Origin: Anolis carolinensis
Taxonomy: Eukaryota
Length of the DNA: 64,000 nt
Reading direction: 5' to 3'
Assembly: GCF_035594765.1 (NCBI RefSeq)
Contig: NC_085845.1
Location: forward strand, 77,742,024-77,806,023
The first letter of the stretch is position 1, and the number at the start of each line of letters is the position of its first letter. Of the stretch, positions 51,481 through 61,569 are shown piece after piece. The position numbers and the translations under genes are program-made. The notes beneath the pieces were generated by a model that saw only the letters and a program-made list of their open reading frames with translations, was not told the DNA's origin and did not search any database.

Positions 51481-54006
51481 GGCATCCCCTGGGCAATGTT
51501 TCTTGTAAATGGCTAATCTTTCAAAACCCAAAAGCATCGCTTTTAAACATTTTAAATTGGAGGTGTGTTTCCCCCCCTCCACAAATGGATGAACACCAAA
51601 GGTCTTTATCAAGACCATTGCTAACTATTATGTCTCTTAATATAGAAGGTTTGTCACTTGCTAAGGAAGAGCTACTAGCCAAAATGTCTGAGGAAATTTC
51701 GTGTGACATCTTATGTTAAGTTAGTTTGTGTTATATTGTTGAATGTGTCCATTTCGATGTATTATCTGTATGGTTTCCTTCTGGCAATTGAATGTTTGCC
51801 TTATATGTTGGAAACCACCCTGAGTCCCTTTGGGGAGATAGGGCAGTATACAAATAAAGATGATGATGATGATGTTGATGTTGATGTTGATGATGATGAT
51901 GATGATGGTGATTTGTTCTTTGGAGATTGGTTTAAAGCCATAAAGGGAAAATATGAGGAAACATTTGGCATGTAGAAACAGCAGGCAGGGAAAGGTTAAA
52001 TTGAGTGTTTAAAGCAAATAATGCTATAGCTAAGTAGTCCTCCATGTCAAAAATGTCTTGTTCAAAAAGCTGGCATTCAACAAAGAATGATGTTAGTGTA
52101 GGCCAACTTACCATACAGAGAGAATGTTTGATACTAGTGAAAATTACATGGTGTTGAATTGGCAGTGTCCATAAAGGAATGTATCATATGGCAGTAGTGG
52201 AAGAGTATGAAGACTGAGAGCCAGTGTGGTGTAGTGGTTTGACCAAGGTTCGCATATAAACTCAGGCATGGAAACCTAAAGCGTGACCTTAGTTAACGAC
52301 AGTCTGTCAGCCTCAGAGAGGAAGGCAAGGGCAAATCTCTTCTGAATAAATTATGCCAAGAAAACCCCAGATAGTGTTACCATAAGTCAGAAATGACGAA
52401 GGTATACAAGACCAATAACATATGGCTTGGACATCGCACTCCAAGCCTAAAGGCAGATATCACTAATAATGTCAGAATTATGTTTTAATCATATTAATTA
52501 AATTTGTTGGGGTTTTTGAGGTCCATTAAGATAAAACATAGATGTCCCTTCTGTTTCAAAACATTAACAGTGGCCCAATAGTTTTATCAGGTATTTACTT
52601 CTGTACATTTTCCAAATTTTTGCAGGGAGAGATAGCAAGCTGAGAGGCAAAAGTAGGACAGAACTGCACTTCTGTAGAATGTGATTTTCAAAGGAGTTCA
52701 ATCGAACTGTGTCCAGATTGCATAACAGATTGTTAAAGCAATGAAAGAAGTACTGCAAGAAGTCTTTCTGGTTTGGGCATAGTTTGAAAAAAAATAATTA
52801 AAAAAACATCCATAGTACTCAAATGCAAAAAATCCTTCTGTTCATGTGTTTTGTACATATAATTCATATTCAGAAGGACCACATATCCAAAGTGGACATA
52901 CTGCCTTTATGATATTTTTAATAATTTTAAAACAAGGAAAACATTTTCATGCATCTCTCCTTTATAGCATCTGCAAGTCTTTCTTCTGTTCTTTAAAATG
53001 CAGAAATTTAATTTTAAATGGGTTCTTATGTGTTTTAACTAAAGAGACTGACATTTTAACAGCATTCCCCATATTGATAATTCATGACATATTTCTAATC
53101 CTCTTGTGTACCTTGTAAATATGCAAATTATCTCTGCAAGGTATTTTTGCTCTTTCACTCCTCATTTTTTGCTATAGTACACCATTTGGTGTTCTAGATG
53201 TAGGATGTCTCTCCCTCACATTTTACTTCCTTCCCTATACAAAAGTGTAACTGTCTGGCCTTTATTGGTACTCCAGTCAATTTCTAAAAAAGAATTTATG
53301 AAGAGAAGATGCATCTCTCTGTGGTTTCCTGGGGGATAATATGGTGCCCCCCTCCTCAGCCTTTGATATTTGTCCATTTCAGTTTAAAATATTTTAATGC
53401 TACAGTTGACCTAACCATTGTTGAACTATTATTTTTGTATGATTTTAATTTTTGTGTATTCATTTGTACTTGCTGTAAGCCACCTCGGGTTCCAGTTCTG
53501 GAAACAGTTTAGATATATTCTTCCTGTCTGACACAAAGGTCTTCTTCTTTCATGAAGAAGGGAGAAGCAGACCTTTCAGTGGACAGATTTTGAAATATTT
53601 ATTCTTTTTAAATTAATATTTATCAATCAAATGATTAGTCCCTAGATATAAATGCCCAGTCCCTAGGTCACCTAATCCATTTCCCCAACTGTATCGTACA
53701 TTGTTTTGCACTATCCCATGCCCGGCCCTTTTATAGCCTGGTCATACCCATTTTTATAATTATGGTCATTGGTTCTTGTTGAACACAGTCTGATGGAGCC
53801 TCGATGCTGCTGTTTTTCTCTTATATTCAATTGTGTTTTGTACTGATAATTTATTTTATGATGTTTTTATTTTATTTTACTGGTGGTTTTGTTTTAATGT
53901 ATTATTGCATTTATGTATATTGGACTTTCTGTCCCATATGTAAGCCACCCCGATTCCCTTTGGGGAGATGGTGGCAAGGTATAAAAATAAAGTTATTATT
54001 ATTATT

Positions 54007-55347
54007 GTATGACACAGCAAACAAGATAGATATGCTGGATTTTGTATCACAAAATCACAAGTCAAACACTTCCCAAGTGTCTAGGACTGTGTGATGTATT
54101 TTCGGATGATGCACGCAGATCCCAGTAGGGTGGCCTATTGCAGTTAGCAGATCGTAATTTTGTCAATGCCTATTGTTTCAAAATGCCGGCTGAGATCTTT
54201 TGGCATAGCACCCAATGTACCGATCACCATCGGGACACCTGCACTGGTTTCTGCCAGAGTCTTTGCAGTTCAATCTTGAGGTCCAGAATAGAGGTTGAGT
54301 TTTTCTTGTTGTTTTTCGTCAATGCAACTGTCACCTGGGATGGCAACATCAATGATCCAAACCTTTTCCTTTTCTACAACTGTGATGTCTGGTGTGTTGT
54401 GTTCCAGAACTTTGTCAGTCTGGATTCGGAAGTCCCACAGTATCTTTGCGTGCTCATTTTCCAATACTTTTACAGGTTTGTGATCCCACCAGTTCTTTAC
54501 TGCTGGGAGGTGGTACTTGAGGCATAAGTCCCAATGAATCATTTGGGCCACATAGTTGTGCCTCTGTTTGTAGTCTGTCTGTGCAATTTTCTTACAGCAG
54601 CTGAGGATATGATCAATGGTTTCGTCAGCTTCCTTGCACAGTCTGCATTTTGGGTCATCAGGTGATTTTTCTATCTTGGCCTTAATTGCCTTTATTCTGA
54701 TGGCTTGCTCCTGGCCTTCTGTCTCCTTCTTCAGTGTCCCATTCATGAGCCAGAGCCAGGTCTTCTCCTTATCAGCTTTTCCTTCAGTTTTGTCAAGGAA
54801 CTTTCCATGCAGTGTTTTGTTGTGCCAGCTGTCAGCTCTAGTTTGTAGTGTGGTTTTCTTGTACTGGTTTTTTGTCTGCTCTGCTTTGAGGAGTTTCTGA
54901 TTTTTGACTTCAATCAAAGCAGGTTCTTCACTTTGCTTTACATATTCTGCAAGGGCATGTTCTTCTTCTTTGACTGCTTGTTTTACTTGTAGGAGTCCTC
55001 TGCCACATGATCTTCTAGGCAGATGTAGCTGGTCAACATCACTGCGGGGTTGTAGTGAATGATGAATGGTCATGAGTTTTCTTGTTTTTCTGTCCAAATT
55101 GTACAGTTCCGCCTGTGTCCAATTTATAATGCCAGCAGTATATCTTATGACAGGTATGGCCCAGGTGTTTATGGCCTTGATGGTGTTGCCTCCATTGAGC
55201 TTGCTTTTGAGAATTTTTCTGACCCTTTGTGTGTATTCTTTGCTGACCACAATTTTCACATGTTCATGCTTGATGTTGTCCAGCTGTAATATGCCCAGAT
55301 ACTTACAGGCCTCTGGCTGGTGACACTTTATTGTTTGGTCATTAGGC
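54007..55347 (-). mobile_element. R4/Dong-clade RLE retrotransposon, 3' part
   Basis: Encodes KYLGI, AINTWAIPV, CRLCKEADETIDHILSCC, RHN and PD..IIDVAIPGD (restriction-like endonuclease). The 3' end abuts (TAA)n. Confidence 0.9.
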
Positions 55348-55657
55348 AAACTTAATTGGAGCTTAACTGCTCCAGTGATGACTGAGAGCTGTGCTGGTGG
55401 TAGTGTAACTACCGGTAGGTCCAACCAAGCCAGAGAGGTCTCAGCTGAGGAGTAGAACTAAGAGCACCTAGCCCATTAGCATTATGGGGAATCAAACCAA
55501 AACGAAGTCTATACTGGCTCGGTCATCGCCCAGGATAAAAAGGACCGCGGTGGATGCTGCTGATTCTGGACATCCATCAACAAGTGGGCTACGGAATCAA
55601 AATACAAATGAACAGTCACAGAAGCGACAGAAATATACAATGCCAGAAAACCGCAAA
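55348..55657 (+). mobile_element. Inverted extreme 5' end of the same Dong/R4 element (5' UTR + ORF start at 55484)
   Basis: ARSSP...SGHP...RQKYTMPENR resembles the N-terminus of vertebrate Dong/R4 ORFs as I recall them; followed by (GTT)n(ATT)n. Confidence 0.65.
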
Positions 55658-55673
55658 GTTGTTGTTGTTGTTG

Positions 55674-55720
<47 letters not shown>

Positions 55721-55751: not shown

Positions 55752-56300
55752 TTTTTTTTTCGTGTCAAAAGTATTGGTACAGCAAATACATTTCAAATAA
55801 TGGAAATAAAATAGAAAAGAAAAGAAATCACAAGCAACTAAATAGTTTTGGACCAAAAGCGGGCATCAGCAACCGCATTGTCCGTAGCTTTAAGCAACTC
55901 CTCCTCCGTACATGAGGCAGGGCATTGTGGGCAAGCATACATATGCTGAGTTGTTTGTTCAGCTCCACAGTCACACAAGGTGGAGGATTCCTCCAGGTAG
56001 TGCCACCTTGCCAAGTTGTCTTTTGATCTGCCTACTCCACTTCTGAGTCTGTTCAGGGACTTCCAAGTTGCCCATTCCTGGTTTGCCCCTGGAGGAAGAC
56101 CCTCTTGGGGGGCCATCCAGTTAGAATTGCCAGGTTTAGCTGCCCAGAGAGACACCCTTGCTGTTGCTGGAGGAACATCAAGAGGAGTGGTGGTTCTCAT
56201 GAAGCCCTTCCTTGATTTGAGTCTGGTGGGAGGAGGGTGATAGCCATGCAGTGGGTGGCTTTCACAATGTTCAACCTTTTTTCTCTCACCGTTAGCACCG
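55752..56300 (-). mobile_element. Vingi LINE 3' fragment
   Basis: Same C-terminal motifs as 50765; 12-bp TSD ttttaggagagt (55740-55751, 56301-56312). Confidence 0.85.
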
Positions 56301-57552
56301 TTTTAGGAGAGTACCATGAGAATATCATTGCTAAGATGCTTAAACAATAAGATACATGTTCTGCATTTCAATTTTGCATCACTTACTATAATTTTGTAAC
56401 AAGCCACATAATTAAAGATACTCCTACCTAAACAGTCAACATCCTATCAATACAGCCAACTGGATCACTCTTTCATGACTTGCAATCATCGCCTGTCTTT
56501 TGGATTGGAGAGTACTGGTTATATTAGAGGTGGAAGTGAAAATTGCAATACCCCCATGACTTTCAGGGGTGTTTCACACTGTTATTATAACACAGCTACC
56601 TTTGTAGTACTATTCAGTACTACAGACTGACACAACTGTCCATCAGTTTTAGTACTTTCAAATTTCTTTCGCTGGCTTCCGATATGTGACAGCATCCCTT
56701 CTAAATCATTCTTCTTTGAAGCTTCAAGGCCTGCCTTTTACATATATGGTATATAACAGTTTGATATCCTCACAATGTAAAGTTGTGCTGCTTTCTTTCA
56801 TCACCTCCACATTTAAGATGGGCTGCTTGCTTTAGCAGGTATATATGGAAGAGCATATTCTCCAAGCTCCCCCCCCCCCCCATATTTTGTTTCCCAAATG
56901 ATTTTCTCATGACTAAAAGTTACAAAATAAATTTAGGGAAAGGTTCACCTACAACTCTGAGAAGATGGATAGCAATGCAGCAATCTAAGGAATGATCCTA
57001 TCTGCCTGCTTCATTCTCTAGCTAGCATTTCTTCGAAATCAAGAGACAAAGGAGTAGGTGATGACCACCCAGCATAATTTTGAACCAGTGGTACAGAAAG
57101 AAATAATCAGAAAGTCTGTCCTTTTCCTCTTTATTCCTCCCTTTACTTCACCCAATTTAGCTAATTAAAACCAAGCTGTGAATTAAGGATCAGTTACTTC
57201 CTTTGTACTACAAGCTGCAAGTTGTCAGTTCACCAGTGTCTATAAAATCTCCAGAGAGACTTTAAAATGAGAGGGGAAATTCCATTTTTGCCTGTCAGCT
57301 AAAGTGAAAAGAGGGGATTCAATTTCATTCCCATGGAAAATTTTGTCTCTTTTTATTATTGTTCAAAAGGGAACATGCAAGAGATGCGATTAATAGTGGA
57401 ACAGATTTTCCCATTACAGCAACCACATCCTTTCTCTATAATATTTATTGGACTATGCTTCCAATCATTATTCTTAGCTGGCTTCATGATATTGTCATGT
57501 AGCCAAATCTGATGGATTGGTTTTGTGGAATCATTATCAAGTTAGTTTAGAG

Positions 57553-59457
57553 TAGGAGTGTGCGAAATCTTGTTGGTCGATTCAGATTTTGGATAATTTA
57601 GGCAATTCATAAAAGCATAGAATCATAGAGTTGGAAGAGACCTCATGGGCCATCCAGTCCAACCCCTTGCCAAGAAGCAGAAAATCGCATTCAAAGCACC
57701 CCCAACAGATGGCCATCCAGCCTCTGCTTAAAAGCCTCCAAAGAAGGGGAGAGAGTTCCACAGCTAAACATCTCTCACTGTGAGGAAGTCCTGCCAGATG
57801 TTCAGGTGGAATCTCCTTTCCTGTAGTGTAAAGCCATTGTTCCATGTCCTAGCTTCCAGAGCAGCAGAAAACAAACTTTCTCCCTTCTCCCTATGACTTC
57901 CCCTCACATATTTATACATGGCTATCATGTCTCCTCTCAGCCATCTCTTCTGCAGGCTAAACATGCCCAGCTCTTTCAGCCGTTCCTCATGAGGCTTGTT
58001 CTCCAGACCCTTGATCATTTTAGTTGCCCTCCTCTGAACACATTCCAGCTTGTCAACATCTCCCTTCAACTATGGTGTCCAGAATTGGACACAGTATTCC
58101 AGGTGTGGTCTGACCAAGGCAGAATAGAGGGGGAGCATGACTTCCCTGGATCTAGATGCTATACCCCTATTGATGCAGGCCAGAATCCCGTTGGCTTTTT
58201 TAGCAGCCGCATCACATTGCTGGCTCATGTTTAACTTGTTGTCCACAAGGACTCCAATATCTTTTTCACATGTACTGCTGTCCAGCCAGGCATCCCCTAT
58301 TCTGTATTTTTGCATTTCATTTTTTCTTCCTAAGTGGAGTATCTTGCATTTGTCCCTGTTGAACTTCATTTTGTTAGTTTCGGTCCATCTCTCTAATCTG
58401 TTAAGATCGTTTTGGATTCTGCTCCTGTCATCTGGTGTATTAGCTATCCCTCTCCGTTTGGTGTCATCTACAAACATGATGATCATGCCTTCTAGCCCTT
58501 CATCTGAGTCATTAATAAAGATGTTAAACAGAACTGGGCCCAGGACGGAACCTTGCGCTACTCCACTCGTCACTTCTTTCCAGGATGTAGAAGACGCATT
58601 GGTGACCACTCTTTGGGTTCATTCGCTTAGCCAATTACCTAACTCTAGTTTTGTCTAGCCCACATTTTACTAGTTTATTTGCCAGAAGGTCATGGGGGAC
58701 CTTGTCAAAGGCCTTACTGAAATCCAGGTACGCTACATCCACAGTGTTCCCTGTATCGACTCAGCTTGTAACTCTATTCAGCAGCCAAACTGTTGAATAT
58801 GAACTGGGAAGGACCTCTTTGAAGCCTTACCAGAATGAAACATGGGCTGCTAAATATTTTGGCTAAATTCAGGAAAAATTCATTGATTCTGGCTTATTTT
58901 TCATCATTAGTATTCTGAGTGTTTATTTGTTTTGTATGCGTAAGCAGCAATCTCTCCATGGTGGGATGACAGGGTTTAGCAGTGAGTGCAGCTACATTTG
59001 CTGCATCACATTTCTCAGCCAATCACAGGCCTGGCTCTGTCCATTCACTTCCCCTCTTGTGACATGTGCTAATTTGGACTTCAAATATCAGAAACCCCTC
59101 TTGCAAGTTTTTTTTAAAATATATATATTATTGATAAAAACTTAAAAATTCCCAAAAATTAATGGATTAGTGAAATGATTTGAAACTTGGCAGGTTTGCA
59201 GTTGTAAATGTGTTCTGCTAGTATGGCAAGTTTAATCATGATAGCCATAGAGATGACAGAAAGATGAGCCTTGCATGTTCCCCTATTGGCACCAATGGAC
59301 TGAATGTTATCAAGATGAAAATAGAACTCAGAATTCTGAATTACGGATCGGAATGTCTCCTAATATCCTGGAATCTTCTAGAAAACAAAATTGGCAGGGG
59401 AAAATCTAGAAATGGAACAAAAAACGGAACAGATTTATGCCATTTCACACACCCCTA
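57553..59457. mobile_element. hAT (TAGGG/Ac-type) non-autonomous element hosting a CR1
   Basis: TIRs TAGGAGTGTGCGAAAT / ATTTCACACACCCCTA; perfect 8-bp TSD gtttagag (57545-57552, 59458-59465). Confidence 0.8.
57608..58774 (-). mobile_element. CR1 LINE 3' fragment with intact 3' end
   Basis: RT motifs GV.QGSVLGP and FVDDTK; (GATTCTAT)n-type tail catagaatcatag. Confidence 0.93.
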
Positions 59458-60828: not shown

Positions 60829-61569
60829 GCTACTCAGTCATTTAGTCATTTCTGACTCTTTGTGACCTCATGGACCAGTCCACGCCAGAGCTCCCTGTCA
60901 GCTGTCGCCACCCCCAGTTCCTTCAAGGTCAAGCCAGTCACTTCAAGGATACTGTCCATCCATCTTGCCCTTGGTCGGCCTCTCTTCCTTTTTCCTTCAA
61001 TTTTCCCCAGCATTGTGATCTTTTCCAAGCTTTCTTGTCTCCTCATGATGTGGCCAAAATACTTCAACTTTGCCTCTAATATCCTTCCCTCCAGTGAGCA
61101 GCCGGGCATTATTTCCTGGAGGATGGACTGGTTGGATCTTCTTGCGGTCCAAGGCACTCTCAGGATTTTCCTCCAGCACCAAAGTTCAAAAGCGTCTATC
61201 TTCCTTCGCTCAGCCTTCCTTATGGTCCAGCTCTCGCATCCATAGGTTACTATGGGGAATACCATTGCTTTGACTATGCGGACCTTCGTTGCCAGTGTGC
61301 TGTTTCTGCTCTTCACTATTTTGTCAAGGTTGGCCATTGCTCTCCTCCCAAGAAGTAAACGTCTTCTGATTTCCTGGCTGCAGTCTGCATCTGCAGTGAT
61401 CTTTGCACCTAGAAATATAAAACTGCCTCCACGTTTTTTCCTTCTATTTGCCAGTTATGAATAGGTGTCGTTGCCATGATCTTGGTTTTCTTGACATTTA
61501 ACTACAACCCAGCTTTTGCACTTTCTTCTTTCACCTCCTCAGCTCTTCCTCACTTTCGGCCATCAGATC
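60829..61569 (-). mobile_element. BovB/RTE LINE 3' fragment
   Basis: Encodes TKVRIVKAMVFPIVTYGCESWT...IDAFELWCWR..LRVPWTARRSNQSIL; 11-bp TSD aaccatggatt. Confidence 0.9.

Follow-up and report, generated by a model that had tools for sequence, protein, structure and literature searches.

The window analysed here is a stretch of 64,000 nt of Anolis carolinensis DNA whose + strand carries GABA-A receptor alpha-2 exons near 23000 and 63900, and the retrotransposon piece examined in it (the window copy) consists of two parts in opposite orientations (Table 1). The 3' piece, on the - strand, matches full-length copy L038 at 93% and its nearest named protein, from Anolis carolinensis, at 92%. The element has a single ORF in which a reverse transcriptase (RT) is followed by a CCHC knuckle and a restriction-like nuclease with a PD..D..K motif, and it has no APE; its target is (TAA)n, and full-length copies of ~3.6 kb (about 3.6-3.8 kb) carry TAA repeats on their flanks. 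This is the anatomy of the R4 clade and of Dong, and with the TAA tail it bears out the element type originally proposed. The nearest solved proteins to the ORF are R2 ORFs, and no named Dong/R4 protein occurs among its protein matches; from its anatomy, we take the lizard element to be Dong/R4. An R4-clade element of 3.8 kb is recorded for Anolis (PMC5389967).

The piece at 55348..55470 lies in the sense strand of a GABRA2 intron, as had been claimed, the alpha-2 exons likewise being on the + strand. The same intron holds other retrotransposon ORF fragments on the - strand, at 55838-56302, 57764-58618 (presumably CR1-like) and 60846-61454 (presumably RTE-like), and a covariance model found no second credible copy of the piece in the window (second match, E 0.14).

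Comparison was made with an own-family sample, the best 30 of 40 scored matches from 1,996 candidates in a genome search. These copies run about 30 bases further 5' than the window copy, through P1, P2, P3 and L3. P3/L3 is kept in 28/30, and the window copy is one of the two without it (a P3 match in L008 is spurious). Ribozyme positions 1 to about 36 are missing from the window copy, and with them the cleavage site, the 5' strands of P1 and P2, P3 and L3. The stretch had been described as the element's 5' end; it does belong to the 5' processing RNA, but it is 5'-truncated and does not hold the whole 5' end. At loose ends of contigs, which served for the junction breakpoints only and none of which spanned the inversion junction, homology to the 3' piece stops at 55348 and 5' homology begins at 55361.

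Table 1. Features of the window copy, in window coordinates
Feature	Positions	Strand	Basis or remark
(TAA)n tail / target microsatellite, element 3' end	53993..54006	-	same 3' end in full-length L031 and L034
Dong/R4 3' piece: RT end, CCHC knuckle, restriction-like nuclease motif, 3' UTR	54007..55348	-	
Inversion-junction filler	55349..55360	.	includes part of fold-back 55355-55362 copying 55369-55376
Ribozyme core remnant: last P1 base G37, predicted P1.1 partner C38 (55362), linker into P4	55361..55366	+	
Enlarged P4 arm; basal stem 55367-73/55449-55	55367..55455	+	pairing and covariation
K-turn bulged strand, box C-like: 3-nt bulge 55374-76, G 55377, A 55378	55374..55381	+	
Distal P4	55382..55444	+	pair counts and cross-family comparison
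K-turn non-bulged strand, box D-like CUGA	55445..55448	+	family pair counts
J4/2, predicted catalytic cytosine 55458	55458..55461	+	invariant in 28/28 copies
P2 3' strand, bulged base 55463, partner missing in window copy	55462..55470	+	
Element ORF start, first ~57 codons, stops at inversion hotspot	55484..55655	+	
(GTT)n(ATT)n target microsatellite beside inverted 5' piece	55656..55717	+	

The intact 5' end and its relatives

Intact copies have, in order, a C-run, the 5' strand of P2, a 3-bp P3 with a 7-nt L3, P3', a G-rich 7-mer, a C, a P4 of 95 nt, CUAA and the 3' strand of P2 with one bulged base. The HDV order P1-P2-P3-L3-P1.1-P4-J4/2 can be threaded through the own-family copies L020, L021, L025 and L026, and since intact copies follow this order with covariation, the unclear or uncatalogued class of the original prediction is superseded. 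That prediction could not thread the HDV order because the window copy is an inverted, 5'-clipped piece with P4, J4/2 and the 3' strand of P2 only. Hammerhead and twister threadings made by eye were dropped once the HDV order fitted. The Rfam comparison suggested at the outset was run, and gave no match to its ribozyme families (HDV, twister, pistol, hatchet, hammerhead) for the window stretch or for seven loci including intact copies. Because Rfam is blank even for intact copies, an Rfam match used as the criterion would miss an HDV-like identity.

Relatives were found with a 21-base pattern for P3/L3/P1', which occurs at 1,090 places in the lizard genome against 0 for a reversed control. The 30 of these places that were examined belong to two other families, which encode an APE-type endonuclease and are therefore assigned to the RTE clade. 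The likeness to RTE 5' ends noted earlier is thereby substantiated: these two families of the same genome share with Dong both the core and a P4 k-turn. Both RTE families (L043-L072, L205-L231) start with the same ribozyme type, and family C, which we take to be BovB-like, has two 5' variants. The pattern also matched eight viral-contig loci; a search of viral contigs for Dong relatives found none. L074 and L076-L080 are minimal 55-62 nt versions of the C1/G22-C38 core with almost no P4; three minimal versions lie within one contig (L078, L079). ARAGORN found no tRNA beside the viral-contig versions (8/8 loci). Together with the k-turn half, the pattern recovered at least 121 metagenome loci (L081-L201), mostly non-coding SINE-like repeats from other organisms, and the core-plus-k-turn pattern had 0 matches in prokaryote genomes. 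One high-copy non-coding SINE-like repeat of the metagenomes begins exactly with the ribozyme and a short k-turn P4.

A descriptor of the HDV order, post hoc in that it was written after the own family was seen, matches 4/30 own-family copies, 20/30 RTE, 6/8 viral-contig and 85 of the 121 listed metagenome loci, L031-L042 being left out of the run as duplicates. Neither the window nor 640,000 shuffled bases contain a match to it, and there is one stray off-target match, in L004. In 16/28 own-family copies (among L002-L030) the P3-P1 segment is lengthened by G-run and GGT-repeat expansions, and the 5' C-runs are 1 to 18 long. Expansions in the P3-P1 segment and the C-run may reflect slippage of RT at the pseudoknot or assembly errors in homopolymers, and a longer C-run could rebuild P1 where the 3' strand of P1 is all G.

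Because the descriptor is post hoc, 148 unfiltered pattern matches whose flanks were long enough were put through swap tests. Of 12 types, eight had their own P1 3' strand as the best partner for the upstream strand, one gave a tie and in three the own strand did worse, and at least six of seven P2 pairs formed in 21/28 own comparisons as against 93/646 swapped ones. With eight rows from four families, 91.5% of the cells are paired and 17/25 pairs are changed on both sides (8/8 in P2 and 9/13 in P4); 0/500 shuffles reached the observed level, and slid controls gave 34-44%. Cross-family counts such as these represent three to four independent lineages, and kin rows inflate the numbers of cells. 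P3, L3, P1.1 and part of P1, fixed by the search patterns, never vary and show no covariation, and the same holds for U20, C24 and G25 of L3, which are present together with the 3-bp P3 and the P1.1 pair; the predicted P1.1 pairing, G22-C38, rests on analogy. In J4/2 the predicted catalytic C stands first and is followed by N-R-A (CUAA or CCAA), where the textbook CRRA has a purine at the second place, and the C and the two A residues are invariant in a 12-row cross-family alignment.

Textbook descriptors call for G1-Y37 and C-G P1.1 pairs (PMC6326823) and a 5' purine (PMC11331408). The lizard core, with C1-G37 and G22-C38, departs from the G1-Y37 and C-G P1.1 of the G1 subtype (HDV, R2, theta) and has the features of the L1Tc type: a C at position 1, an element that begins at the predicted cut (in lizard Dong itself the length of the C-run at this start varies) and a short predicted P1.1. 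The base ahead of P1 is random flank in 97 SINE-like copies (A31 T29 G19 C18), which puts the start of those elements exactly at the predicted cut. An alternative register, in which a G before the C-run pairs with C38, was rejected, as that base is random in the 97 copies and T or A in 7/7 viral-contig matches.

In R2, R4, Dong, RTE and L1Tc elements, HDV-like ribozymes free the RNA from a co-transcript (PMC6765202, PMC3774820, PMC5786205). L1TcRz of Trypanosoma cruzi L1Tc/NARTc likewise lies at the retrotransposon's first base, with the cut before C1 (PMC3185411, PMC3383444, PMC4035085); it is active with C1, has a P1.1 of 1-2 bp and stops RT at G37/C38 (PMC3185411), the point where the window copy begins. 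It shares with the fold predicted for lizard Dong the 3-bp P3, the P3-P1 layout and, as read from primers, a CUAA J4/2 followed by a bulged P2 strand (PMC3185411). L1TcRz is 77 nt long with a short P4, whereas the lizard ribozyme is about 145 nt, with a 95-nt P4, a k-turn and a three-way junction; furthermore, the host element is of another clade, and activity is demonstrated for L1TcRz and predicted for lizard Dong. The 5' HDV-like ribozyme of Bombyx mori Dong cleaves in vitro (PMC3774820), and this and the nematode R4 ribozymes resemble the lizard case in clade, in the TAA target of Dong and in a cut at the 5' end, predicted in the lizard case. The primer given for B. mori Dong has a G after the TAA repeats, unlike the C-run of the lizard element (PMC3774820). 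RTE-clade HDV-like ribozymes are cited in the same literature (PMC6765202, PMC5786205, PMC3774820), and the lizard RTE families share core and k-turn with Dong. As for the minimal and theta ribozymes of phages (PMC10879173), six of the eight viral-contig matches have an identical core and a P4 of 5-10 nt; theta ribozymes, as described there, have G1 and often lie beside a tRNA, in contrast to the viral-contig versions with C1 and no tRNA. By its structure the intact lizard Dong 5' end would belong with the L1Tc-type HDV-like ribozymes, and in no ribozyme class does the window copy count as a complete member.

Judged from its sequence, the stretch very probably holds three parts of a likely HDV-like ribozyme that starts the lizard Dong/R4 element, namely its P4 arm, its predicted catalytic C and the 3' strand of its P2, and is truncated such that it would not cleave. 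In intact copies, the C-rich 7-mer at the first bases would pair with the G-rich 7-mer after P3 to make P1 (C1-G37), P2 would close the long-range pseudoknot, and L3 would contribute one P1.1 pair, G22-C38. The C equivalent to 55458 would serve as general acid, with the predicted cut directly before the first base, and by analogy with Dong, R2 and L1Tc the cut would release the RNA of the element from a read-through transcript of the host. Lacking a scissile bond, P1, P3 and L3, the window copy should be inert in the GABRA2 pre-mRNA and should not cut it, and the loss of positions 1 to about 36 overturns the earlier expectation of a cleavage-competent RNA there.

A real HDV-like fold could also have lost catalysis in lizard Dong and serve only to shield the 5' end or to aid translation, with a promoter or another nuclease setting the RNA end. 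The match of only 4/30 copies to the descriptor and the pyrimidine first base, against the 5' purine rule (PMC11331408), speak for such a role, as do reports that the HDV fold aids R2 templates partly apart from cleavage (PMC11331408) and that some correctly folded trypanosome SIDER ribozymes are inactive (PMC4035085). Yet the J4/2 C is invariant, the elements start at the predicted cut, L1TcRz is active with C1, and for any retrotransposon decayed copies make up most of those in a genome; we consider this explanation improbable.

The P4 arm and its k-turn

The complementary segments originally listed are all present in the window at the positions given, as is the ATG at 55484, although the fold of 55340-55485 taken alone is not beyond chance (z -1.59; 11/200 shuffles as good). 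Family pair counts, made on 28 ungapped copies with two gapped copies left out, separate the proposed helices. The long helix 55382-87/55439-44 stands (165/168 cells paired, with five of six pairs changing on both sides across families), and 55399-403/55409-13 has the support of both family and cross-family comparison. Of the CTGGT/GCCAG helix, the same comparisons support 55394-96/55431-33. The last hairpin had been drawn as 55414-16/55424-26, which pairs in 53/84 cells; the right partner of 55424-26 is 55418-20 (83/84, U-A changing to G-C between families). A pseudoknot between 55420-22 and 55449-51 pairs within the family (82/84), but two of its three pairs break in 3/7 cross-family rows, and 55449-51 is taken by a covarying P4 stem; the pseudoknot was rejected. 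The basal stem 55367-73/55449-55 is paired in 194/196 cells, one of its pairs being G-C in 11 copies, G-U in 10 and A-U in 7.

Above the k-turn, distal P4 consists of the long helix, the pairs 55389-90/55436-37, a conserved internal loop and the stem 55394-96/55431-33, and then a three-way junction, tentative in its pairing at 55397, 55415 and 55430, formed by a hairpin (55398-403/55409-14) and a 3-bp hairpin (55418-20/55424-26) with a CCA loop. This revised model has 95.7% of cells paired over seven rows, with 12/28 pairs changed on both sides, compared with 90.3% and 9/27 for the P4 model as first drawn (68% in its last hairpin and 71% in its pseudoknot); the two models have most helices in common, and the P4 sample represents three lineages.

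Between the basal and long stems lie a 3-nt bulge and tandem G.A/A.G pairs flanked by canonical and non-canonical stems, the elements that define a k-turn (PMC5579392). The 3-nt bulge is followed in the own family by G.A in 27/28 copies, A.G in 28/28, U.U in 28/28 and G-C in 27/28. RTE family C has the 3' GA in 17/19 parsed copies (4/23 were unparsed), with different stems. For RTE family B the automated parse is ambiguous (11 GA and 11 off-register, of 25), and the k-turn is kept in both family-B rows of alignment A4. SINE-like copies, in which the 5' half of the k-turn is forced by the pattern, have the 3' GA in 72/109, and the automated parse found no k-turn in the eight viral-contig loci. 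An R4 variant, L202 (~1350-1530, - strand), keeps the k-turn on a short P4 with fully changed stems, and the three-way junction is missing. L179, a metagenome locus from another organism, retains the k-turn and has the lizard Dong layout over 96 nt with changed pairs; it and RTE family C have the distal P4 motif in common with lizard Dong. These comparisons point to a P4 k-turn conserved across R4 and RTE families, and after it the three-way junction.

In the original view, the ~110-nt window fold is complete in itself, a self-cleaving RNA whose class is uncatalogued; this view draws on helices several of which are real and covary, and on the blank in Rfam. It is nevertheless very hard to sustain, because in relatives this fold sits as P4 within a complete HDV-order fold; because RTE family B, the SINE-like repeats, the viral contigs and L202 keep the HDV core and either have no distal part or have another in its place; and because the first hairpin arose at the junction and the pseudoknot does not hold across families. 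A captured or mimicked box C/D snoRNA at 55367-55455, processed from the GABRA2 intron and guiding methylation, is as remote a prospect, for although the arm, in the sense strand of an intron, has box C-like and box D-like words and a terminal stem, a covarying stem ties up the bases ahead of box D and leaves no free guide, the Rfam snoRNA match is a 17-nt chance one, and other families keep a generic k-turn without the C/D words, which occur only in the lizard Dong family.

The resemblance to the box C/D snoRNA k-turn (PMC5579392) consists of the 3-nt bulge, the tandem G.A/A.G, the U.U and G-C pairs and the flanking stems; the lizard k-turn differs in lying inside a ribozyme P4, with no free guide. 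As part of the HDV-like ribozyme, it would bend the distal three-way junction back, and an L7Ae-family host protein would likely bind it. More tentatively, and with the odds somewhat against it, the k-turn may be a conserved P4 docking module in the HDV-like ribozymes of RTE and R4/Dong elements that recruits a host protein of the L7Ae family, for instance 15.5K/SNU13, to fold, protect or translate the uncapped RNA, lizard Dong having obtained its ribozyme from RTE by a 5' module swap. A literature search found no natural k-turn in an HDV-like P4, though RTE ribozyme papers and their supplements may show one, and nothing on the structure of a lizard Dong or BovB ribozyme; PMC9521606 and PMC13648714 deal with engineered tags.

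Inversion at the 5' piece and significance of the family

The hairpin 55357-62/55369-74 of the original prediction falls outside the family fold: family homology begins at 55361, and 55367-73 pairs with 55449-55 in the family. Read in reverse complement, 55355-62 is identical to the commonest own-family state at 55369-76 (20/29 copies), and the hairpin is best read as a fold-back formed at the inversion junction. The opposite boundary of the 5' piece is a recurrent one. The 5' piece breaks off at element base 338-346, ahead of a TTA microsatellite, in 23/30 own-family loci, and in 22 of those 23 an inverted 3' piece adjoins it, a rate that is provisional since the query ended at the hotspot and best-scoring matches only were counted. 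The element word at the hotspot (55650-55660 in the window) is TTAT, complementary to the TAA target, and the flank goes on as TTA repeats; the start of the inverted 3' piece varies from element base ~1100 to ~2960 (L001-L030). In twin priming, a concept from work on L1, insertions have this geometry, and the hotspot points to twin-priming-like insertion in an element with a restriction-like endonuclease. No report of inverted Dong copies was found in the literature.

For the window copy, the second (TAA)n target strand would have primed at TTAT near base 340, and copying from it would have run toward the element 5' end. Reverse transcription may then have stalled at G37/C38, folded back over six bases and joined the inverted 3' cDNA. 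At L008, near 1440-1500, a P4 arm is fused with a tRNA-like SINE head, and the joint lies at or close to G37/C38, where the window copy starts.

Neither the HDV-like class nor the part it plays in Dong and RTE elements is new, and the window copy would be a dead fragment; the interest lies in the family, with its inversion hotspot and a k-turn arm that R4 and RTE have in common. Ribozymes with a C1/G22-C38 core are probably undercounted in vertebrates, because Rfam and G1 descriptors miss a core that has 1,090 pattern matches in one genome. P4 has usually been held to be a dispensable stem, and here its k-turn is kept by compensatory change in an R4 element, two RTE families and SINE-like repeats. 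The P4 k-turn opens a direct and inexpensive way to ask what stabilises uncapped retrotransposon RNAs cut by a ribozyme, or allows their translation, a question that bears also on R2-type gene-insertion templates.
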